64,000 bases of DNA from Planctomycetota bacterium (GTDB taxonomy: Bacteria; Planctomycetota; UBA1135; JAKEFM01), in assembly GCA_035695825.1 (NCBI GenBank), contig DASRRH010000009.1:23044-87043 (forward strand), read 5' to 3'. This document shows positions 41,598 through 56,376 of this stretch, one piece after another. The notes below the pieces were generated by a model, which was not told the origin of the DNA, did not search any database, and saw only the letters and a list, made by a program, of their open reading frames with translations. Position numbers and translations under genes: made by a program. Each line of letters opens with the position of its first letter. The first letter of the stretch is position 1.

Positions 41598-41760
41598 GAG
41601 GTTCGACGGGCCCGCACCGACCTCCTGGGTCCCACATGGACGGGACGAAGGGGGACGGTAGACTCTGCGCGTCTGCACTTTCACCCCTCCCGGCGAGCCG
41701 TTGGGCCCCGGCGGGGTAATTTGTATTGGGGGGACGAGGAGAGTGCGGGGGGAGCCTGCG

Positions 41761-41962
41761 GTGAAGAGGGGGGTCGCCTTCGTGGACGGCCAGAACCTGG
41801 TCCACGGCACCCGGCCTGCGAGTGATCGCGCTCTCGCGAGCGATCTGCCGGCGGCGAGGATCGGAGTCGACGCAGGCTCGCTTCTACACGGGCGTCCCCG
41901 AACCCGAAGCCGATCCGTGCCTCGACCAGAGGGAGTACAGGCCGCGAAGGGAATCGCGGTGA
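41761..41962 (+). pseudogene. Frameshifted, truncated copy of the NYN-domain gene at 55816
   Basis: VKRGVAFVDGQNLVHG (frame of GTG 41761) matches RAVAFFDGQNLFHG of the intact copy. ARFYTGVPEPEADP in a different frame matches VRFYTGLRDPRDDP. The spacing between the two is shortened and a stop falls at 41960-41962. The upstream 160 bp is also homologous. Confidence 0.55.
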
Positions 41963-44679: not shown

Positions 44680-44912
44680 GTTCGCTCCGAGGGTCGGTGG
44701 GCGCCGCCAGTCTACTCCAACGACCTTCGGAGGGCGAAGAGGTCGTGGAGGTTCCCGAAGCCCGACTCGACGAGGTCGGCCTCGTCGAGAATCCTCCCCC
44801 GCACTCCCTCCGCGTGGGAGGGGGGCGAGGGCCGTCCTCAGCGCGCCCTCTCCGGCCCGTTCGAGATCGTCCGCCCCAGCCGGCCGACCGGACGAGGCGC
44901 CGCGCGGGGCGA

Positions 44913-44987
44913 GGGGAGCTGACCGAATCCTGGTGAGGTCGAGCGACCGGTCCCGGACCGACCTGGGTTCAAATCCCAGGCGGCTCG
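44913..44987 (+). other. tRNA-like relic (acceptor/D-arm/extra-arm/T-arm but no anticodon arm)
   Basis: Perfect T-arm CTGGG-TTCAAAT-CCCAG (44963-44979). 3' acceptor strand GCGGCTC. 5' strand GGGGAGC pairs at 5 of 7 positions. U8. D-arm ACCG/AGGT with a GG-containing loop. Hairpin CGGTC-CCG-GACCG. No 17-nt anticodon stem-loop can be drawn. Confidence 0.3.
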
Positions 44988-45405
44988 GAAGTTAGCAATG
45001 GATGGTGCGCCCGCGTCCGAACGCGGCCGTTTCTGCGTTCTTGGGAATACCGCCGCGAGGAGAGTCCGTGCGCCCCTCAGGTCGCCCCTTCGAGCCGTTT
45101 CGAACCCCATTCCCTCCGATTCCCATGCGTCGATTACCGCGTCGACACGAGGAGATGGCGATCCTGCCGAGGCTCGCGCCGCCCCCGACTCGGGAGGAGG
45201 GCGCGGTCCTCAGAGGCATTCGCCGCTCCAAGGACGCGCTCGGCGATCGGCTCGAGGAGGCGCGACACCGGCACCGGACCCAGCGGATCTTCCGCACACC
45301 GGGCCCGGACTTCCCCGGCGACGGCGACAGATGGGGATCGATTGCGATGGAATCGATCCGTGATCTGGCTTCGGGAACGAAATCTCGAGGAAGGACGGAA
45401 AGAAC

Positions 45406-46251
45406 ATGACCCAGGGTTGCTCGATCCACGTCGGCCTGAACCGGGTCGACCCCCGACACTACGGCGGCTGGGACGGAGAGCTCGCGGGGTGCGAGAACGA
45501 CGCCCGCGACATGAAAAGGATCGCCCGCTCCCGAGGGTTCCGGACGCAGCTCCTCCTGACGAGGCGGGCGACCTCATCCGCCGTGACGGCGGCGATTGCG
45601 GAGGCGGCGGAGACGCTGCGCTCCGGGGACATCCTCTTCCTCACCTACTCCGGCCACGGGGGGCAGGTGCCCGACGAGAACGGAGACGAGTTCGAGGACC
45701 GGCGGGACGAGACCTGGGTCCTCTTCGACCGCGAGCTGGTCGACGACGAGCTCTACGCGCTCCTCGGCCGCTTCGAGCCGGGCGTCCGGGTCGCGGTCCT
45801 CTCGGACAGCTGCCACAGCGGCACGGTGACGAGGGCGCGGAGGATGGCGGAGCTGCGCGCTTCCGCGCCGATGGCGCGCGCGTTCGGGATCGACGGGGAG
45901 CGGAGGGTGAAGGCGCTCCCCCCCGACGTGCAGGAGAGGACCTGGCGGCGCCACCGGGCGCTCTACTCGCGCATCCAGAGGGCCCACCCCTCGGGGGAGC
46001 GGGCCGCGATCGGGGCGAGCGTGATCCTGATCTCGGGTTGCCAGGACAACCAGGAGTCGGCGGACGGAGACCGGAACGGCCTCTTCACCGAGAAGGTCCT
46101 CGAGGTCTGGAGCGCCGGGCGGTTCCGGGGCGGCTACCGGCGCCTCCACCGCGAGATCGGGACGCGGATGCCTCCGGTGCAGACCCCGAACTACTACCGG
46201 GTCGGGACGCCGAGTCCTTCGTTCGAACGGCAGAAGCCGTTCACGATCTAG
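45406..46251 (+). CDS. Caspase-family (peptidase C14, orthocaspase/metacaspase-like) cysteine protease, no signal peptide
   Basis: Catalytic His context ILFLTYSGHGGQ and catalytic Cys context VAVLSDSCHSGT. NDARDM near the N-terminus. The ATG at 45406 lies in a locally AT-richer leader. Confidence 0.9.
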   Translation: MTQGCSIHVGLNRVDPRHYGGWDGELAGCENDARDMKRIARSRGFRTQLLLTRRATSSAVTAAIAEAAETLRSGDILFLTYSGHGGQVPDENGDEFEDRRDETWVLFDRELVDDELYALLGRFEPGVRVAVLSDSCHSGTVTRARRMAELRASAPMARAFGIDGERRVKALPPDVQERTWRRHRALYSRIQRAHPSGERAAIGASVILISGCQDNQESADGDRNGLFTEKVLEVWSAGRFRGGYRRLHREIGTRMPPVQTPNYYRVGTPSPSFERQKPFTI

Positions 46252-46265
46252 GCCGGGGAGCCTCC

Positions 46266-49200
46266 ATGGACCGCTTTCACGTCCTCCCCCTTCCCGCCCC
46301 CCGCCGAGGGACGAAGCTCCCCGCGGGCGGGATCTACGGCCTCCACCGGCAAACCGGCCACTACGAGGTCGCGCAGGAAGCGGCCGAGCAGTTCGGCTTC
46401 ACCTCGCCCGCGGTCTCGATCCTCCGGGACGCCGCGCAGGATCCCGACTTCTACGAGTGGAGCGTCCCGGCGGCCCACGCGCAGACGCCCGACGAAGTGG
46501 ACCTCGGAAAGGTCCCCGACCGCTCCGAGGCGATCGAGGCCTCGCAGGAGGAGTTCCTCCGATGGGGATTGGGCAACGTCGAGCGGGCACGCGCGGCGCT
46601 CGCGCAGGGGGACCTCCGCGAGACCCTCTACTGGGTCGGCTACCTCCTCCACGGCGTCCAGGATCTCGCCCCCCACGCGGGGCGGACGAACGCGGAGCAC
46701 GCCTGGAACGACCCCAATCCCGACCTTGACGCGGGGTGCGTCGAGCTGGCGCGGAGCTATACGCTGGAGACCCTCCGGGCTCTGCGCGAGACCTTCGGGG
46801 CACAGAGCTTCGACGCGCTGCGCTCCTTCGACGGCGAGGGGAAGTTCTCGCGCGCGGAGAAGAAGGAGCGGCTGCATCCGGGCGGGTGGGACTTCTCGTT
46901 CGAGAGGTGGCGCGAGTACCACTCGAACGGGGAAGCCTACGGGGAGCTCGATCCCCCTCCGGCGCCCGTTCGCTGGCCCCGCGAGCGCGTGCTCGGGCGG
47001 CTCCTCGGGGGTTTCGCGGCGGCCGCGACGAAGGGGGAGGCGCGGCCTCGGCGCGAGGAGCCGGCGACCGGAGACCGATTCGTGCCCCTCGTCTCCCTCC
47101 CCTCTCCGAAGGAGCGGGCGAGCTGGACGCTCCTCGTCTACATGGCGGGGGACGATCTCTCGCCGGACGGGATCGAGTACGCCGTCGAGCAGGACCTGCG
47201 CGAGATGAAGGAAGCGGGGTCCACGGCGTCCGTCCACCTCCTCGCCCAGACGGACGAGGCGACGCGGCGCAACAGTTTCCGCTACCGGCTCCGCAAGGGG
47301 ACGGCGCTCGAGAGCGACCGCCTGGAGATCTTCCGCGGCGATCTCAACACGGGGCGCGTCTCGACCCTCGTCGACTTCGTCCGGTGGGGGAAGGAGAGGT
47401 TCCCCGCGGAGCGCTACGGCCTCGTTCTCTGGGGGCACGGCTCCGGTCACGACGACCGGGACGTCTACCGGCTCGCCCGGGGCTCGATCTCCCGGCGCCT
47501 CGCGACGCAGGTCGCGCGAAAGCGCCTCGGTTTCTTCCGCGGGACGCGCCGGACCCTCCTCGAGCGCGGAGGGCCGGCGCGTGGTTTCGGGTTCGACGAC
47601 ACGGCGGGGGACTTCCTCGACGGGACCGAGCTGCGGGCGGCGCTGCGCGAGATCGCCGCCCTCCTCGGCGCTCCGCTCGACCTGCTCGGCTTCGACGCAT
47701 GCCTGATGGGGATGGCGGAGGTCGCGTACCAGGCGCGCGAGAACGTCCGGGTGATGGTGGCGAGCCAGCTCCCGGAGCCGGGGGACGGCTGGCGGTACGA
47801 CCGAGCGCTCGCCCTCCTCCTCAAGAAGCCCGACCGCACGCCGGAGGCTCTCGCAAAGGGGCTCGTCCGGGAGTTCGACCGGGAGTACGGCGGGGCGCAG
47901 ACGCTGAGCGCCATCCAGGTCGACCGGATCGTGGGCCTGGCGGGGGAGCTGCGCGCCCTCTCTCCCCGCATCGCTCCCGAGGAGTTCCACCGCTGCCGCC
48001 GCGCCGCCCGCGACTGCGGCCCGGAGGGGCGGGACGGGTACCGGGACCTCGGGGGGTTCCTCGCCGCGCTCGGCGCCCCGGCGGCCGCGGCTTCCGCGGC
48101 CCTCGGCCGCGCCGTGGTCGAGACCTGCGGGGGGACGAGCGGCCTCTCGATCTACCTCCCGGGCGACTACCGGCCGGAGGAGCCGGGCGGGACGGACGAG
48201 ATCTACGAGGGCCTCGACTTCCCGCACGAGGGGGGCTGGGCCGGGCTCCTTCGCCGGATCTACGCGCCTCCCTCGGAGCGCGTTCCCGGCCGCGGCGTCC
48301 CCCGAAGCTCGGCCGAGCTCGCGGGCGTCGCCTTCCTCCACGCCCTCGACCGACACCACGTCGGAGCGGCCGCCCGGGCGGTCCTTGAGCAGGACGGCGA
48401 TCCCTCGAAGGCGCGAGAGGCGGACCGGGCGCTCCGGGCCCGCGCCTCCCCCGCGCGCGACCTCCTTCGCGTTTCCACGATCCGCCCCTCCCGCGGCGCG
48501 GTCGGAGAGGCGCTCCGCAGGATGTGGGAGTCCGCCGGCCGATGGTTCGACGAGGACGGCGATCCGCGCGAGGACCCCGACGTCCGGGTGCTCCTCCTCC
48601 CCGGCGGCATGGGCTCGCTCCTCTCCGATCGGGCGGGCGGGCATGGCCTCGTCTGGATCGACCCGATCGGTCTCCTCGCCGGGGAGGACTTCGAGACCCT
48701 CCGCCTGCAGCCCGACGGGGAGACCGACGCGGACGGCGGAGTGAGGCTCGAGGCGATCGGCCCGGTGCCGGTCCTCTACGACCGCCTCGCCCTGGCCCTG
48801 ACGGCGGAGTTTGGTCCAGTCGTCGAGCAGGTGGGCTACGACTGGCGAAAGCCCCTCGAGCGCCGCGCCCTCGATCTCGCGAGGAGGATCGAGCGCATCC
48901 TCGCCGCGTCCCCCCGTCGCCGCGTCGCGCTGGTCGCCCACTCGGCGGGGGGGCTCGTCGCCGCGGAGGCGGCCGGGAAGCTCGATCCAAAGCTGCGTCC
49001 ACGCGTGCTCGGCCTCGTCGCGATGGGGGCTCCCTGGCGCGGGATGGCCCGGGCCGGGCTCTACTTCCGCGGAGAAGGGGACCAGGCCGATCTATTCTCG
49101 AGGCTCACCGGGCGGGAGCCCGCCGAAGTCGCCGCCGTCGTCCAGACCTTCGCGGGCCTCGTCGACCTGCTTCCCCCGGACTCCCCCGACCTCTTCGAGC

Positions 49201-49676
49201 CGAGGTTCTATGCGCCGGGCCCCCTCTCGACGTGGCCGGAGGCCGGGGCGCGGCTCGCAAGGGCGAGGACGAAGGAGTGGAGGTGGCCCGAGCCGACCGT
49301 CGCGATCGTCGACGACAGCCACTCGACCCTCACGCGCGTCGTCGCGACGGACGGCTCCTGGGAAGGGGAGGAAGGTCCCGGCGACGGGAGCGTCCCGGTC
49401 GCGAGCGCGACGGCGGGGGGGGACATCCCGAGCGTGCGGGTGCGCGCGGGCCACGTCTCCCTCCCCTTCGACGGGGATGCGATCCGCGCGACGGTCGAGC
49501 AGATCGGGCGCTGGGTCCACGGCTCCTCGTACACATTCGCGGGTCCGCTTCCCGGAGCGGGAGCCGAGGACCTGCGCGCCTCCGCCTCGCGCCGCGAACT
49601 CCTGGCGAGGCTCGAGGAGCCGGAGGTCCGGCCCCTTTCCGTGGCGGACTTCGCGGCCCTCGCTTGGCTCCTGTGA
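46266..49676 (+). CDS. 1136-aa fusion: Zn-dependent phospholipase-C-like domain + clostripain-type (C11) cysteine protease + LCAT/PGAP1-like alpha/beta-hydrolase lipase; no signal peptide
   Basis: N-terminus: AAQDPDFYEW...AHAQTP...LYWVGYLLHGVQDLAPHAGRTN (compare the PLC pattern FYLGxSLHYLGDxxQPMHxxN). Middle: WTLLVYMAGDDL...LVLWGHGSGH...LGFDACLMGMAEV...SQLPEPGDGWRYD (C11 His/Cys dyad contexts). C-terminus: LLLPGGMGS...GYDWRKP...LVAHSAGGLVA...GAPWRG...GDGSVPV...AGHVSL (LCAT-type Ser/Asp/His contexts). RBS GGGGAG before the ATG at 46266. Confidence 0.85.
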   Translation: MDRFHVLPLPAPRRGTKLPAGGIYGLHRQTGHYEVAQEAAEQFGFTSPAVSILRDAAQDPDFYEWSVPAAHAQTPDEVDLGKVPDRSEAIEASQEEFLRWGLGNVERARAALAQGDLRETLYWVGYLLHGVQDLAPHAGRTNAEHAWNDPNPDLDAGCVELARSYTLETLRALRETFGAQSFDALRSFDGEGKFSRAEKKERLHPGGWDFSFERWREYHSNGEAYGELDPPPAPVRWPRERVLGRLLGGFAAAATKGEARPRREEPATGDRFVPLVSLPSPKERASWTLLVYMAGDDLSPDGIEYAVEQDLREMKEAGSTASVHLLAQTDEATRRNSFRYRLRKGTALESDRLEIFRGDLNTGRVSTLVDFVRWGKERFPAERYGLVLWGHGSGHDDRDVYRLARGSISRRLATQVARKRLGFFRGTRRTLLERGGPARGFGFDDTAGDFLDGTELRAALREIAALLGAPLDLLGFDACLMGMAEVAYQARENVRVMVASQLPEPGDGWRYDRALALLLKKPDRTPEALAKGLVREFDREYGGAQTLSAIQVDRIVGLAGELRALSPRIAPEEFHRCRRAARDCGPEGRDGYRDLGGFLAALGAPAAAASAALGRAVVETCGGTSGLSIYLPGDYRPEEPGGTDEIYEGLDFPHEGGWAGLLRRIYAPPSERVPGRGVPRSSAELAGVAFLHALDRHHVGAAARAVLEQDGDPSKAREADRALRARASPARDLLRVSTIRPSRGAVGEALRRMWESAGRWFDEDGDPREDPDVRVLLLPGGMGSLLSDRAGGHGLVWIDPIGLLAGEDFETLRLQPDGETDADGGVRLEAIGPVPVLYDRLALALTAEFGPVVEQVGYDWRKPLERRALDLARRIERILAASPRRRVALVAHSAGGLVAAEAAGKLDPKLRPRVLGLVAMGAPWRGMARAGLYFRGEGDQADLFSRLTGREPAEVAAVVQTFAGLVDLLPPDSPDLFEPRFYAPGPLSTWPEAGARLARARTKEWRWPEPTVAIVDDSHSTLTRVVATDGSWEGEEGPGDGSVPVASATAGGDIPSVRVRAGHVSLPFDGDAIRATVEQIGRWVHGSSYTFAGPLPGAGAEDLRASASRRELLARLEEPEVRPLSVADFAALAWLL

Positions 49677-49834
49677 AGGATGGGGGTGTTGGGTCTCTTT
49701 TACATTCGAGGCTCGCGCCCCCTCGAGGATCGCGATCGATGACCAGGTGAGAGGAACGCCCCTCTTCCGGCATCGGGGCGCGGGCAATCGCCCCGGGCCG
49801 GGTAGGGAGGCGTCTGCTTCGAGGAGGAGATCCC

Positions 49835-52800
49835 ATGCCGGACTCTGAGTCGTCTCAGGCCAGGGACGCGGTCTCTCGGTTCTGGCCGCCGGTCACCGCT
49901 CTGCTGCTCCTCGCGCTCGGCATCTTCCATCCCCGCGCACCTCTCAAGACCGCTCGCCCAGACGTGGCGAATCCGTTCGCGAGCGCCACGGAGCCCGGCA
50001 CGATCCCAGCCAGGCTTTGGGAGGACCCGCTCGAAGCGGTCTCTCGCTCCCCCCGGGTCGAATCCCCGGCTCCCGCCCCGGACCAGGCGGCGACGACCGA
50101 AGGGAGCGAACCCCTCCTTCCCGGCCTCGACGGGGTTCCCAAGGGATCGCGGCTCCTCTTGCCCGTCTTGCTCCCCGGCGGGCCCCATGCGGAGGACCGG
50201 GAGACCCGCCTCCGAACGCGCAGGGCGGTCCTCATGGCCCTCGCCGCCGAGGGATACGTTCCGGAGCAGAGCGACAGGCTGAGGTACCTGGTCGTCCGCG
50301 ACCCGCTGCCGAGGGTCCCCTACGAACTCCTCGTGCTCGATCCGGGTAGCGGGGACGAAGAACATCACCCTTTTCTCCGCTACGACCTCGTCGTCCTCTG
50401 CTGGATCGACGAAGCGCGCCTGCTTCTTCCCTTTGGCGAAAAGCGGACCACGCCCAACCTTCTGGGCGCGCTGAGCGAGATCGTCGCCAAGTTCTGCAGG
50501 GGGATTCGATCCGCCTCCAAGGATCCCGAATCCGTGGCGCCCGCGGTCCGCGCCATCGGCCCCACCGACTCCGCGGGACTCGTCTCCCTCCTCGCGGCCG
50601 ACCCGAAGGGGCCGGCCTTCCCTGAAGGGACGGAACTCCACTCCCCCTGGGCCACGATCGACGACGGCACGATTCGGGGGAAGGGCGACAAGCACCCGTC
50701 GCTTGTCGGTCAGCCGCCCGGGCCCCTGCGCCTCGCCGAATGGCGCCTCACCGTCCACCGGACGATTCAGACGGACGACAAGGTCGTCGGCGCTCTCCTG
50801 GCGGAGCTCGACCTCCGACGCGCGATCCCCACGACCTGCGACCGCCGCATGATCCTCCTCTACGAGTGGGACACCGGCTACGGACGGGCGCTGAAGGATC
50901 TCTTCTGGGAGGCCTTCGAGGTGGACCTGCATCTGGGGCCCTCCCGTCGTCCGTGGCTGCCCCGCTGCCGGTGCTGCAGCGCGCGCCAGTTCGCGTGCTG
51001 CGAGGCTCCGACGGCGGGAGGATGCTGCCCCCACCTGCGCGTCATCGGCTACATGCGCGGGCTGGACGGCATGGTCTCGGGCGGACGCGGTCCGGACGAG
51101 GAGGCCGCGGGGCGGGAGGAAGGATCCCGCGCGAGCGGGTCCGTCAATCCCTCGGAGGAACCCTTCGGCCGCTCCCAGCTCGACTACGCTCGGCGCCTCG
51201 CCTCTCGATTGGGGGCGGAGGAGACATCCCGGCCCGGCGGCACGCGGATCGCCTCGATCGGGATCCTCGGCACCGACGTCTACGACAAGCTCCTGCTCCT
51301 CCGGGCGTTGCGACCGGCGTTTCCCCAAGCGCTCTTCTTCACCACGGATCTCGATGCGCGGCTCCTCGATCCCGACGAGCAGGACTTCGCTCGGAACCTG
51401 ATCGTCGCTTCCGCGAACGGGATCGCCCCTGACGACGAGGAGCACCGCGTGGCTCCCTCGTTCCGCGACTCCTACCAGACGAGCGTCTACCGCACCTGCC
51501 GCGGCATCCTGAGGGGTTCGCCCGAAGATCTCGGTCCTCCGGTCGTGTTCGAAGTCGGGAGGACCGACGCGAACAGGCTCCGCGCGGGGACATGGTCGGC
51601 GGATTCCGCCTCGGCTCGAAAGCCTCATCCAAACAGCAGGCGGGGCACGCTCGGGTTGGCCGTCCTCGTCGGGCTCCTCGGTCTCGTGGCGGGCATCGCC
51701 TGGCTTCGACCCCCCCTGCTTCGCTGGTTCCGGGCACTGCCGATCGAGACGCGACGGCGGACGCTGCGGGGGATCGGCATCGCGGCCGTCTTCGTCGCCG
51801 CCCTCGCCGCTTGCATCCTCTACGACATCCACCGACCGGGGGGGGAGCCTTTTGCCCTGTGGGAAGGGATCAGCGCGTGGCCCACCGAGATCCTCCGCGC
51901 CCTCGTGATTCTTCTCGGGGCCGGGCTGTTGCTCCAGGCGGAAGCCCAGCTCGCTTCCAACGCTCGAGACATCGAGGAGACCTACCACTTCGAGAGGGGA
52001 GAAGGGTCGGCGGGGAAGGGCCCCTCGGCGGGGTCCGGGAGAGGCTCGCGCGGCGAGCCGGACGACAGCGATTCGAACCCTGGCGCGACCGGGGGAGCCA
52101 GTCGCGGCTCCCGGAAGGGCTTGTGGGCCCGTCTCGAATCCCTGGCCCCCCTCGCCTGGCCACTGACAGACCCGATCCCGGACGCGCGGGGCACGTGGGC
52201 CGCCTACCGCGAGCACAACCGGCTGGAGAAACGGTGGTGGAGGATTGTCAGGTTTGTCTTCCTCCTCCTCGTCCCCGGCTGCCTCGCCTTCCTCCTCTTC
52301 AGCTGGCCGACGAGGCCCGTCCGGGGCTTCCTCTGCTCCGTCGCGGACCTCTTCTTGGAAGGAGGAGCCTTCCTCGCGACCGCCGTGGTCACGCTCGCCG
52401 TCCTCGATCGATCCCTCGCGGCCCGGAGGTTCGTCCGGGCGCTCACGGCGCCGGGAATCGGATGGGACGCGGAAGCATTGGGCCGCTTCCCGACGAAGGA
52501 AGGCAAAGGGATCGAGGAGGTCGGCGAGTGGCTGGACGTCGAGGTCATCGCGAAGAGGACCGAGTCCGTCGAGCGCACCGTGTACGGCCCCTTCGTGCTG
52601 GTCCCCCTCCTCTGGATCTCCCGGGACTCCCACTTCGACAACTGGGGCTGGCCCGTCCCGTTCCTGGTCGTGGGGATCGCCCTGCTCCTCGCCGCGGTGG
52701 TCTCCATCGCGCTGGTTCGCCGCTCCGCCGAGCGAGCGAGAGCCAGCGCCCTGGAGCGCCTCGAAGCGAAGATCGAGGAGGCGCGCGGCAAGGGCGGCCA

Positions 52801-52954
52801 GGATCGCGTCGACCTCCTCGCGCGCCTCGCGGAGAGAGTCCGCAGCGAGCGGCGGGGCGCGTTCAGCCCATTCCTCGACAATCCCGTGCCCCGCGCTCTC
52901 CTCATCCCCTTCGGCGGACTCGGGTCGTGGACATTCCTGCAATCGATCCTGTGA
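49835..52954 (+). CDS. Orphan 1039-aa polytopic membrane protein (N-terminal anchor, large soluble domain, about 7 further TM helices, coiled-coil tail)
   Basis: Strong RBS GAGGAGGAG 5 nt before the ATG. TM segments FWPPVTALLLLALGIF, LGLAVLVGLLGLVAGIAWL, GIAAVFVAALAACILY, ILRALVILLGAGLLL, IVRFVFLLLVPGCLAFLLF, FLVVGIALLLAAVVSIALV. No family recognised. Confidence 0.75.
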   Translation: MPDSESSQARDAVSRFWPPVTALLLLALGIFHPRAPLKTARPDVANPFASATEPGTIPARLWEDPLEAVSRSPRVESPAPAPDQAATTEGSEPLLPGLDGVPKGSRLLLPVLLPGGPHAEDRETRLRTRRAVLMALAAEGYVPEQSDRLRYLVVRDPLPRVPYELLVLDPGSGDEEHHPFLRYDLVVLCWIDEARLLLPFGEKRTTPNLLGALSEIVAKFCRGIRSASKDPESVAPAVRAIGPTDSAGLVSLLAADPKGPAFPEGTELHSPWATIDDGTIRGKGDKHPSLVGQPPGPLRLAEWRLTVHRTIQTDDKVVGALLAELDLRRAIPTTCDRRMILLYEWDTGYGRALKDLFWEAFEVDLHLGPSRRPWLPRCRCCSARQFACCEAPTAGGCCPHLRVIGYMRGLDGMVSGGRGPDEEAAGREEGSRASGSVNPSEEPFGRSQLDYARRLASRLGAEETSRPGGTRIASIGILGTDVYDKLLLLRALRPAFPQALFFTTDLDARLLDPDEQDFARNLIVASANGIAPDDEEHRVAPSFRDSYQTSVYRTCRGILRGSPEDLGPPVVFEVGRTDANRLRAGTWSADSASARKPHPNSRRGTLGLAVLVGLLGLVAGIAWLRPPLLRWFRALPIETRRRTLRGIGIAAVFVAALAACILYDIHRPGGEPFALWEGISAWPTEILRALVILLGAGLLLQAEAQLASNARDIEETYHFERGEGSAGKGPSAGSGRGSRGEPDDSDSNPGATGGASRGSRKGLWARLESLAPLAWPLTDPIPDARGTWAAYREHNRLEKRWWRIVRFVFLLLVPGCLAFLLFSWPTRPVRGFLCSVADLFLEGGAFLATAVVTLAVLDRSLAARRFVRALTAPGIGWDAEALGRFPTKEGKGIEEVGEWLDVEVIAKRTESVERTVYGPFVLVPLLWISRDSHFDNWGWPVPFLVVGIALLLAAVVSIALVRRSAERARASALERLEAKIEEARGKGGQDRVDLLARLAERVRSERRGAFSPFLDNPVPRALLIPFGGLGSWTFLQSIL

Positions 52955-55815: not shown

Positions 55816-56376
55816 ATGCCGAACTACGAGCCCGTCGCCCTTGCGCGGGCCGTCTGCTCGGGTCCGAGGTGGACCCTCGAGCGCGTTCGTTTCTACACGG
55901 GCCTCCGCGACCCGCGCGACGACCCGTTCTGGTACTCGTTCTGGTCCGCGAACCTTGCTGCCATGAAGAGCGATGGGATCGAGGTGATCACCCGCCCGCT
56001 GCGGTACCGCCGCGTGACCGTCCGGCTTCCGGACGGCGGCACGCACTCGTTCGTCTCGAGGGAGGAGAAGGGGATCGACGTGCGGATCGCCCTCGACGTC
56101 ATGCGGCTGGCGCATCGGCGGGAGTACGAGGTCGCGCTCCTGTTCAGCCAGGACCAGGACTTCGCGGAGGTCGCGCGGGAGATCTGCGTCGTCGCGGCGG
56201 ACCAGCGCCGCTGGATCAAGATCGCGTCGGCCTTCCCGGAGGGCGCGGGCGCGCGCAAGGGGAGGGGGATCGACCTCACCGACTGGATCCCGATCGCGCG
56301 GACGACGTACGACGCCTGCCTCGATCCGCGGGACTTCCGGCCGAGGGGGAGAAGTGGTCCGGGCGCGGCGGGGTGA
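55816..56376 (+). CDS. NYN (LabA-like) domain RNase-fold protein
   Basis: EKGIDVRIALDVMRLA ... ALLFSQDQDFAEVAREI. The conserved N-terminal strand RAVAFFDGQNLFHGAREAFGY lies in-frame upstream (55750-55812), but there is no ATG/GTG/TTG between the in-frame stop at 55633-55635 and the ATG at 55816. Confidence 0.75.
   Translation: MPNYEPVALARAVCSGPRWTLERVRFYTGLRDPRDDPFWYSFWSANLAAMKSDGIEVITRPLRYRRVTVRLPDGGTHSFVSREEKGIDVRIALDVMRLAHRREYEVALLFSQDQDFAEVAREICVVAADQRRWIKIASAFPEGAGARKGRGIDLTDWIPIARTTYDACLDPRDFRPRGRSGPGAAG

Follow-up and report, generated by a model that had tools for sequence, protein, structure and literature searches.

Here, we analyse three co-directional genes in a 64,000-nucleotide (nt) stretch of contig DASRRH010000009.1 from a Planctomycetota bacterium (the whole stretch is called the window below), and we tentatively propose that the first two of them, a C14 caspase-family protease and a large protease-lipase fusion, are a protease-effector module. 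This computational follow-up takes up an initial annotation, made on the sequence of the window alone, that had described the locus as a candidate protease-gated cell-suicide or conflict module. All three genes lie on the forward strand: the caspase at 45406-46251 (281 amino acids), the fusion at 46266-49676 (1136 amino acids), and a very large membrane protein, here called the giant, at 49835-52954 (1039 amino acids), with gaps of 14 nt between the first and second genes and 158 nt between the second and third. Long spurious open reading frames (ORFs) are common in G+C-rich DNA (the window has a G+C content of ~72%, and the frame of the fusion, for example, stays open back to 45342), and we therefore trained a codon log-odds model on the other long genes of the window. 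The resulting gene caller picks exactly these three genes and rejects the alternative frames, with per-codon log-odds of +0.37 for the caspase, +0.35 for the fusion, and +0.22 for the giant, and a third-position G+C content (GC3) of 0.95, 0.92, and 0.86, respectively. The ORF check and the codon-usage caller thus confirm the three genes of the initial annotation, along with their coordinates, lengths, and gaps. In base composition, the segment that holds them is not set apart from the rest of the window.

The spacer that runs from the caspase stop codon to the ATG of the fusion (46252-46265, forward strand, 14 nt) carries a Shine-Dalgarno-like motif (GGGGAG), and for this reason the caspase and the fusion are probably co-transcribed. 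Neither this spacer nor the gap between the fusion and the giant holds a terminator-like site, and a search of the locus for a sigma-70-like promoter found none.

The first gene (45406-46251) encodes a metacaspase-like protease of the GSU0716/3BIJ family. It matches Peptidase_C14 (PF00656) over residues 17-265 with 87.3 bits against a cutoff of 21.4 (E 1.7e-24), and the two catalytic contexts that the initial annotation had described as intact, His84 (SGHGG) and Cys136 (DSCHSG), are invariant in 24 homologs. DSCHSG is a metacaspase-type cysteine motif, and a variable Arg-rich linker (residues ~140-175) parts the p20-like half of the protein from the p10-like half. The caspase is a protease domain alone and has no sensor domain. 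A family profile built from the 24 homologs matches the PDB entry 3BIJ over its full length (E 2e-122), with eukaryotic metacaspases as the next-best matches (~1e-24). 3BIJ is GSU0716 of Geobacter sulfurreducens, which was deposited as an uncharacterised protein by a structural genomics effort; since it is a direct family member, the fold of the GSU0716-type caspase is solved, with no function assigned there. By profile comparison, the window caspase is an ortholog of GSU0716. It probably cuts after Arg or Lys, as judged from its motif and from the nearest characterised structures being metacaspases.

Relatives of the caspase number more than 7500 in a database search and form a tight family of ~275-285 amino acids with 55-66% identity to the window protein. 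Scanning one genome per species gave at least 550 caspase loci, and the best 80 of these (L015-L094; 51-60% identity to the window protein, from at least 6 phyla or classes) were used in the comparisons below. These 80 span Verrucomicrobiota, Actinomycetota (including Streptomyces), Acidobacteriota, Planctomycetota, Chloroflexota, Brocadia, Flavobacteriales, and beta- and delta-proteobacteria, and GSU0716-type caspases also occur on plasmids of Rhizobium, Sinorhizobium, Bacillus, and Deinococcus. This wide spread at 51-60% identity, plasmids included, points to the horizontal spread of a strongly constrained module.

The second gene encodes three domains in succession on the forward strand: an all-alpha N-terminal domain (46266-47039, residues 1-258), a clostripain-type C11 protease (47115-48300, residues ~285-680, PF03415), and an LCAT/LPLA2-type alpha/beta-hydrolase (48580-49676, residues ~775-1136, PF02450). 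About 60 full-length homologs of 1080-1200 amino acids, with 41-55% identity by BLASTP or MAFFT, share this architecture and come from Myxococcota, Syntrophorhabdus, Syntrophales metagenome-assembled genomes (MAGs), and metagenomes; residue conservation was read from an alignment of 36 full-length homologs. This tri-domain family (phospholipase C (PLC)-like, C11, and LCAT) is previously undescribed.

The C11 and LCAT assignments are both above the Pfam cutoffs. Peptidase_C11 matches with 119.8 bits against 25.8 (E 2.5e-34), the His/Cys dyad of H391/H395 (WGHGSGH) and C479 (FDACLM) is invariant in the 36 homologs, and the family profile of the fusion finds solved C11 structures, including the zymogen 6mzo (1.7e-24), 6n9j, and the clostripain 9cip (1e-13). 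LCAT matches with 28.4 bits against 21 (E 1.2e-6), alongside Abhydrolase_1 (1.8e-7), and the same profile finds the LPLA2 structure 4x90 (1.3e-9) and LCAT (4.5e-6) in the PDB. The hydrolase triad, S893 (AHSAGG, a GxSxG-type elbow), D1040, and H1063, is likewise invariant in all 36, the roles of Asp1040 and His1063 being assigned by conservation and order rather than by structure.

The N-terminal domain is harder to place. Pfam gives no match in the first 260 residues of the fusion, with PF00882 not reached at E <= 0.1, and a PDB sequence-profile search with the domain returns nothing. Its AlphaFold2 model is all-alpha (predicted local distance difference test score, pLDDT, of 85), and the top nine Foldseek matches to this model in the PDB are all zinc-dependent phospholipases C (clostridial alpha-toxins and the B. 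cereus PC-PLC), but weak ones (E 0.1-0.4, probability <= 0.66, TM-score ~0.3). Nine residues are invariant in the 36 homologs (H32, D59, D61, H71, H129, D133, H137, N142, and E144). H32, D59/D61, H71, H129, D133, H137, and E144 presumably reproduce the order H-D-H-H-D-H-E of PC-PLC, which is a correspondence of order and not a residue-level superposition. Searched with a profile, 1.84 billion representative proteins yield 419 carriers of the domain, and two of these remote homologs match PF00882 below threshold, with 19.1 and 17.5 bits where the cutoff is 26.8. From the model and these distant matches, the domain is probably a distant Zn-PLC/P1-nuclease-like metallo-hydrolase and not a member of that family. 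The three-domain description first given to the fusion thus stands for C11 and LCAT, with their invariant catalytic residues, while its “Zn-PLC-like” part is weakly supported.

Three further properties of the two proteins bear on how they might work together. First, neither has a signal peptide, as had been claimed: by hydropathy, a hydrophobic N-terminus is absent from the caspase, from the fusion, and from the 36 full-length homologs of the fusion. Second, the fusion has exactly two invariant [RK]-Gly dipeptides, R405-G406 and R439-G440, which lie 34 residues apart and both within the basic loop that joins the catalytic His of the C11 domain to its Cys. The corresponding loop is where C11 zymogens such as PmC11 and clostripain are cut on activation, and the two dipeptides are candidate activation cleavage sites of the fusion. 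Third, the N-terminal domain is found fused to Peptidase_C14 in two other proteins (P0340, which has 46% identity to the window domain over 121 amino acids, and P0353) and to transglutaminase-like cysteine proteases in two more (P0294 and P0306). The caspase domain of P0340 is not of the 3BIJ type, so these fusions support a link only at the level of the C14 family.

What keeps company with GSU0716-type caspases elsewhere? The 80 caspase loci were scanned for partners with profiles seeded from the LCAT domain of the window and from Pfam-identified neighbours. In 25/80 loci the caspase has an LCAT/DUF7379 hydrolase and/or a CHAT (clan CD) protease close by; most of these partners are co-directional with the caspase, and many lie within a few nt of it. 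In a control set of 80 loci centred on relatives of the giant, 0/80 have LCAT, DUF7379, or CHAT (Fisher p = 6e-9, for 1.30 Mb of DNA at the caspase loci and 0.97 Mb at the control loci), a statistic that counts loci and not independent evolutionary events, with several loci coming from related MAGs. The partners take three forms: 470-amino-acid LCAT proteins that start no more than ~30 nt after the caspase stop codon (L021, L023, L035, L037, L039, L070), seven single DUF7379/LCAT and CHAT fusions of 1200-1900 amino acids (L022, L049, L050, L053, L069, L078, L081), and separate CHAT genes near the caspase; ORFs in these foreign loci are stop-to-stop frames, which leaves exact gaps and lengths approximate. 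The associated loci are from Actinomycetota, beta-proteobacteria, Chloroflexia, Flavobacteriales, Solimonas, and Limisphaerales. In a Pfam census of 59 immediate downstream neighbours, LCAT was found 11 times, a second Peptidase_C14 9 times, PGAP1 7 times, DUF7379 6 times, and CHAT 5 times; papain-like proteases and one PLC-family phosphoesterase are further neighbours. Upstream neighbours are heterogeneous, and for this reason the window arrangement, with the caspase first, is taken to be the usual one for such pairs.

No signal peptides were found in the LCAT and CHAT partners that adjoin a caspase. At the level of domains, then, the GSU0716-type caspase recurs beside signal-less LCAT-like hydrolases and clan-CD proteases (25/80 against 0/80). 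The DUF7379/LCAT/CHAT fusion together with a GSU0716-type caspase is a recurrent gene pair and, as far as we found, an undescribed one. We see here a recurrent theme of a clan-CD or other cysteine protease with a lipase-like hydrolase, to which the window pair adds one more combination, with C11 replacing CHAT.

Two arrangements at these loci are recorded in their own right. In several phyla, a GSU0716-type caspase has as its direct neighbour a cytoplasmic protein with DUF7379, LCAT, and CHAT domains (for example L022:4353-9809, L069:10808-16528, L053:10941-16076). Separately, at Streptomyces loci (L055, L061, L067, and others) a PAS/GAF/SpoIIE (PP2C phosphatase) protein takes the place of the hydrolase after the caspase.

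In light of the caspase and the fusion being intact, cytoplasmic, and tightly spaced, which supports the interpretation first given to them, what might the pair do? Our best explanation, advanced tentatively, is that the two genes form a two-gene cytoplasmic protease-effector module built around a proteolytically gated lipase, and that it is a variant of known protease-effector systems. The fusion would be a latent effector, with two hydrolase domains likely to attack lipids (the PLC-like and the LCAT/LPLA2-type domains) and a C11 protease of its own. The caspase, or the C11 domain itself, would cut at R405-G406 and R439-G440 in the C11 loop, and this cleavage would set off a short clan-CD protease cascade by which the lipase domains are freed or activated. 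Membrane phospholipids may then be degraded from inside, so that the cell is stopped or killed, whether during a conflict response (abortive infection, for instance) or in some other kind of programmed death. What we infer in this scheme is that the two genes are co-transcribed, that the substrate is lipid, where the cleavages fall, which way the cascade runs, what triggers it, and that it ends in death or defence. Of the protease-gated cell-suicide or conflict module originally suggested, the caspase-fusion pair remains plausible through its domain-level recurrence; the giant is probably separate, the leader peptide was rejected, and a defence-island context was not seen, all three being taken up below.

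Several observations weigh against the two-gene module. Fusion homologs with 41-55% identity have neither a caspase nor a giant in 7/7 contexts; there the gene looks stand-alone, in surroundings that vary and are mostly housekeeping. Conversely, neither a C11 nor a PLC-like domain was found at the 80 caspase loci, nor any fusion of the window type. Conserved synteny of the three genes, whose absence the initial annotation had itself listed among the refuting outcomes, is accordingly missing at the ortholog level (7/7 fusion contexts, 80/80 caspase loci). When the ORFs of the caspase loci were searched by phmmer with the full fusion sequence, no LCAT partners came up, and the caspase-associated LCAT proteins are related to the LCAT domain of the window only at the level of the Pfam family. 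The GSU0716-type caspase also occurs alone, or beside SpoIIE phosphatases, histidine kinases, amidohydrolases, and CorA. Most stand-alone homologs of the N-terminal domain are proteins of ~400 amino acids with signal peptides or lipoboxes (for example P0297, P0301, and P0310), and this export suggests that the domain often works outside the cytoplasm; one of the two caspase fusions, P0353, likewise has an N-terminus of the signal-peptide/lipobox type. Within the window, a Pfam scan of 20 neighbouring genes named no defence, integrase, or transposase gene, and PADLOC reports no known system at the locus, a generic caspase hidden Markov model (HMM; 1e-9 for the window caspase) being its sole match. 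The lipid substrate is assumed from family names, no trigger or sensor was identified at the locus, and autocatalysis may suffice for activation, since the Arg-Gly sites are invariant in fusions that have no neighbouring caspase.

The contexts of the fusion homologs offer some side observations. Two of the seven have a toxin-antitoxin pair within a few kb (L007:1634-2193 and L010:11625-12163; PemK/RHH and ParE/RHH), and two loci (L005 and L181) have a Y1 transposase nearby; together, these are faint hints of accessory regions.

The immediate surroundings of the locus speak to how the caspase may have arrived. A degenerate tRNA-Leu(GAG)-like structure of 91 nt with an intact T-arm (CTGGGTTCAAATCCCAG) lies on the forward strand at 44897-44987, ~420 nt upstream of the caspase. 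It is called by ARAGORN at -ps90 and missed at default settings, and Rfam returned nothing over 40-58 kb of the window, this structure included. The T-arm motif is single-copy, leaving no second copy to mark the far end of an island. The structure is possibly an old integration site, with no integrase and no second repeat; the tRNA-like relic reported earlier is thus real as a degenerate structure and sub-threshold as a call.

Between this structure and the caspase are two upstream frames on the forward strand, 45002-45409 (135 amino acids) and 45347-45409 (20 amino acids), which end in an ATGA overlap with the caspase start and had been proposed as a coupled leader peptide. Both frames and the overlap exist. 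Their codon log-odds are -0.22 and -0.79 per codon and their GC3 is 0.70 and 0.38, they have no Pfam match and no homologs, and we judge them non-coding; the leader peptide was rejected on this codon usage. The same stretch carries the ribosome-binding region of the caspase (GGAAGGA).

On a larger scale, the segment had been described as bracketed by duplicated NYN units. NYN similarity is present on both sides and in direct orientation, as one intact gene (55816-56376) and one frameshifted fragment (41716-41917; ~200 nt, amino acids 22-97) that lies 14 kb upstream of its intact paralog, with the three genes studied here between them; no other similarity was found between the flanks of the segment. 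The description of the segment as full of secreted proteins holds, its neighbours being secreted adhesin- and glycosidase-type genes. A defence-island context, on the other hand, is not borne out, as neither the Pfam scan of the neighbours nor PADLOC gave a defence or mobility gene or a known system.

These surroundings belong to the most serious competing explanation, namely that the three genes are chance neighbours, which we consider unlikely, though far from negligible. Here, the fusion would be a self-activating protein with no partner, the caspase a mobile, sensorless protease that happened to insert in front of it next to an old tRNA-like site, and the giant unrelated to both. This account makes good sense of the 7/7 fusion-homolog contexts with no caspase, of Arg-Gly activation sites that are invariant where there is no partner, of the degenerate tRNA-like element just upstream of the caspase, and of a giant family with no conserved neighbour. 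It is also consistent with the high mobility of the caspase family, which is found in many phyla at >50% identity and on plasmids, standing alone on Bacillus toyonensis p68. It sits poorly with the 14-nt spacing and the Shine-Dalgarno-like motif, which suggest operon-style expression, and with the fusion of the PLC-like domain to caspases elsewhere. It must also contend with the 25/80 against 0/80 association: LCAT-type hydrolases and clan-CD proteases are rare and yet are the commonest neighbours of the caspase, which makes a chance landing beside a protein that combines both domain types unlikely.

Alternatively, the fusion might be an antibacterial or predatory toxin that is delivered by a non-Sec route (contact-dependent secretion or vesicles) and attacks the membranes of other cells, with the caspase as its maturation protease, a reading we regard as improbable. 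The locus does lie among secreted proteins, and the stand-alone PLC-like homologs do carry signal peptides or lipoboxes. Cell-wall enzymes are also present at some caspase loci (LysM, SLT, and a phosphoesterase at L016; PG_binding/CHAP and patatin at L011 and L012), and one fusion homolog is near CHAP and VgrG3-C-like genes. Set against this, the fusion and its immediate neighbourhood showed no secretion-system gene, immunity gene, or delivery domain (PAAR, Rhs, VgrG, or MIX), the contexts of its homologs are mostly housekeeping, and an export signal is absent from 36/36 full-length homologs and from the caspase-adjacent LCAT and CHAT proteins.

There remains the giant (49835-52954), which had been called an orphan membrane protein of no recognisable family. 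Neither it nor any of its relatives has a Pfam domain, and a PDB sequence-profile search gave nothing; ~85 detectable relatives occur in Nitrospira, Roseateles, and many metagenomes, and metagenomic members of the family run into the hundreds. Hydropathy gives ~7 hydrophobic helices, the N-terminal one included (the helices are not mapped singly). The AlphaFold2 model (pLDDT 75.5) places an N-terminal transmembrane helix first, then an alpha/beta domain, and then a helical membrane domain of ~6 transmembrane helices (residues ~600-1039). In this model, residues ~55-585 are a type-1 periplasmic-binding-protein/Venus-flytrap fold, matched by Foldseek to the LivK-type binding proteins 4q6b and 3td9 (E 1.3e-5, probability 1.0, target TM-score (TMt) 0.54-0.61) and also to the flytraps of taste, calcium-sensing (CaSR), and mGlu receptors. 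The best Foldseek matches of the membrane domain are modest ones to insect gustatory- and odorant-receptor seven-transmembrane (7TM) ion channels: for Gr43a, E is 0.013, probability 1.0, and TMt 0.42, and across Gr43a, BmGr9, and odorant receptors E is 0.013-0.25, probability up to 1.0, and TMt 0.35-0.44. As modelled, the giant looks like a ligand-binding receptor or channel. It is polytopic and has no Pfam family, as first reported, and its fold can now be recognised as flytrap plus channel-like. We know of no described combination in which a flytrap domain is inserted after the first transmembrane helix of a core resembling these 7TM ion channels.

Could the giant be the sensor that the pair lacks? 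A three-gene, receptor-coupled unit, with the giant sensing a periplasmic ligand or membrane stress and controlling the caspase, which in turn activates the fusion, appears more improbable still than an exported toxin. The giant is co-directional with the pair and 158 nt downstream of the fusion, with no terminator-like site between, and that gap is long enough to allow a separate promoter. A point for a membrane partner comes from the closest orthologs of the window caspase (63-66% identity; L011, L012, L013, and L176), on four contigs, three of which have the same gene order. These caspases sit ~10-15 nt downstream of a membrane protein of 1245-1261 amino acids (L012:3254-6991, L011:3206-6991, L176:1-1827), which belongs to a second, very divergent membrane-giant family and is a remote homolog of the window giant; hhalign aligns it to the window giant over the flytrap domain with probabilities of 98.3% and 97.3% (E 2e-14 and 2e-11). 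A CorA-like membrane protein upstream of another close caspase ortholog points the same way. On the other side, the 80 caspase genome loci contain neither the window type nor the L012 type of giant, and 80/80 metagenome loci of the giant family, along with the closest homolog of the giant (47% identity), have no caspase, LCAT, CHAT, or C11. No gene is a conserved neighbour of the giant family, whose best neighbour cluster is present at 9/80 loci. A membrane partner for the sub-clade of closest caspase orthologs is suggestive and is outweighed by the 80/80 negative loci, which also remove the giant as a systematic third partner. The giant is most likely an independent receptor or channel and at most an optional sensor.

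Some details of these clusters are given here for completeness. Also encoded in the cluster with the 1245-1261-amino-acid membrane protein are an M10-like metallopeptidase, PG_binding/CHAP, alpha/beta-hydrolases, ADC, and patatin. At the locus with the CorA-like protein (L175:1560-3389), that protein has 334 amino acids and ends 4 nt before the caspase (64% identity to the window protein), and a 276-amino-acid protein with no Pfam family follows the caspase and overlaps its stop codon.

The most far-reaching idea, a “death-receptor-like” pathway in which a receptor with a flytrap and a 7TM core acts through a sensorless metacaspase on the C11 domain of an effector whose two lipid hydrolases would dissolve the cell's own membrane, with the thousands of GSU0716/3BIJ-type caspases as a universal “executioner adaptor” between interchangeable sensors (flytrap giants, CorA) and effectors (LCAT, DUF7379-CHAT, C11 fusions, papain-like, PLC), is the least probable of all and is highly unlikely.

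If the two-gene module is real, it would have several consequences. In bacterial immunity, death effectors under protease control are coming to be seen as a major principle, and the systems described so far combine sensor-bearing proteases with small, single-domain effectors. A very large and conserved family of sensorless metacaspases (3BIJ) would gain a function, and in the tri-domain effector family a clostripain-type protease would, for the first time, be both cytoplasmic and regulatory. The pair of invariant Arg-Gly sites, provided the link is real, gives the fusion an activation mechanism open to direct test. Irrespective of the module, the combination of a flytrap with a chemoreceptor-like channel core in the giant is of interest to the question of how ligand-gated receptors evolved.

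How does the locus compare with known systems? Its caspase has a direct family member in GSU0716 (3BIJ), a structure with no assigned function. The C11 domain of the fusion is like clostripain and PmC11 in its Pfam and PDB matches, its His/Cys dyad, and its basic His-Cys loop. In clostripain, a linker is excised by two Arg-specific cuts, and most C11 enzymes known so far serve anaerobes in digestion, as secreted proteins or lipoproteins. In contrast, the window C11 is cytoplasmic and lies between two hydrolase domains. We found no literature on DUF7379, nor on clostripain/C11 proteases in defence.

Bacterial gasdermin operons, to which the locus had been likened, share the concept of a caspase-like protease beside a membrane-damaging effector that is inactive until cleaved. 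Gasdermin-associated proteases usually have sensor domains. The attack envisaged for the window is enzymatic (lipase or phospholipase) and not pore formation, and none of the three proteins matches a gasdermin or another known defence-protein model in Pfam and PADLOC, apart from the PADLOC caspase HMM; the resemblance is one of logic, by analogy only, with no gasdermin present.

For the giant, the comparison is with channels and receptors. Its transmembrane part resembles insect gustatory- and odorant-receptor channels, and its soluble part resembles flytraps of the LivK and class-C G-protein-coupled-receptor types. Bacterial members of the 7TM ion-channel superfamily (Bac7TMICs) have been reported (Himmel et al. 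2023; 10.1101/2023.08.30.555482).

Closer to the pair itself is the type III-B CRISPR/CBASS hybrid of Haliangium ochraceum, in which SAVED-CHAT cleaves and activates a small caspase, PCaspase, which degrades many proteins (Steens et al. 2023; 10.1101/2023.06.23.546230). In both cases two clan-CD proteases are encoded together, one of them a small His/Cys caspase, and by analogy the window pair may share the logic of one protease activating the other to bring about abortive infection. At this locus, however, there is no SAVED/cyclic oligoadenylate sensor, CRISPR, CD-NTase, sigma factor, kinase, or inhibitor gene (Pfam and PADLOC gave no SAVED, type III CRISPR, or CD-NTase in the three proteins or the neighbours scanned), and the second protease is a C11 and not a CHAT, fused to hydrolase domains.

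The LcCaspase of Lysobacter capsici cleaves an adjacent alpha/beta-hydrolase zymogen at two Arg-Gly sites, which leads to cell death, and a sensorless caspase-like protease with no dedicated effector defends E. coli against phages (Evans et al. 2025; 10.1101/2025.11.14.688446). As in the LcCaspase/LcHydrolase pair, the window has a gene for a caspase-fold protease beside one for a cytoplasmic alpha/beta-hydrolase with lipase-like affinities, here 14 nt apart, and two Arg-Gly cuts there have a counterpart in exactly two invariant Arg-Gly sites in the fusion. LcCaspase-type proteases are described as fused to sensors (STAND, beta-transducin repeats), whereas the window caspase, at 281 amino acids, is sensorless, and no STAND, WD40, or TPR gene that might serve as its infection sensor is among the neighbours scanned. 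LcHydrolase is ~33 kDa, whereas the fusion has 1136 amino acids with its own C11 protease and PLC-like domain, and its Arg-Gly sites lie in the C11 loop and not in the hydrolase (LcHydrolase being compared by its description only). Thus, by analogy, the window pair is like the LcCaspase and SAVED-CHAT systems on paper, yet it comes with no sensor, no SAVED/CRISPR/CD-NTase, and no gasdermin, and it sets its caspase beside a much larger and different effector.

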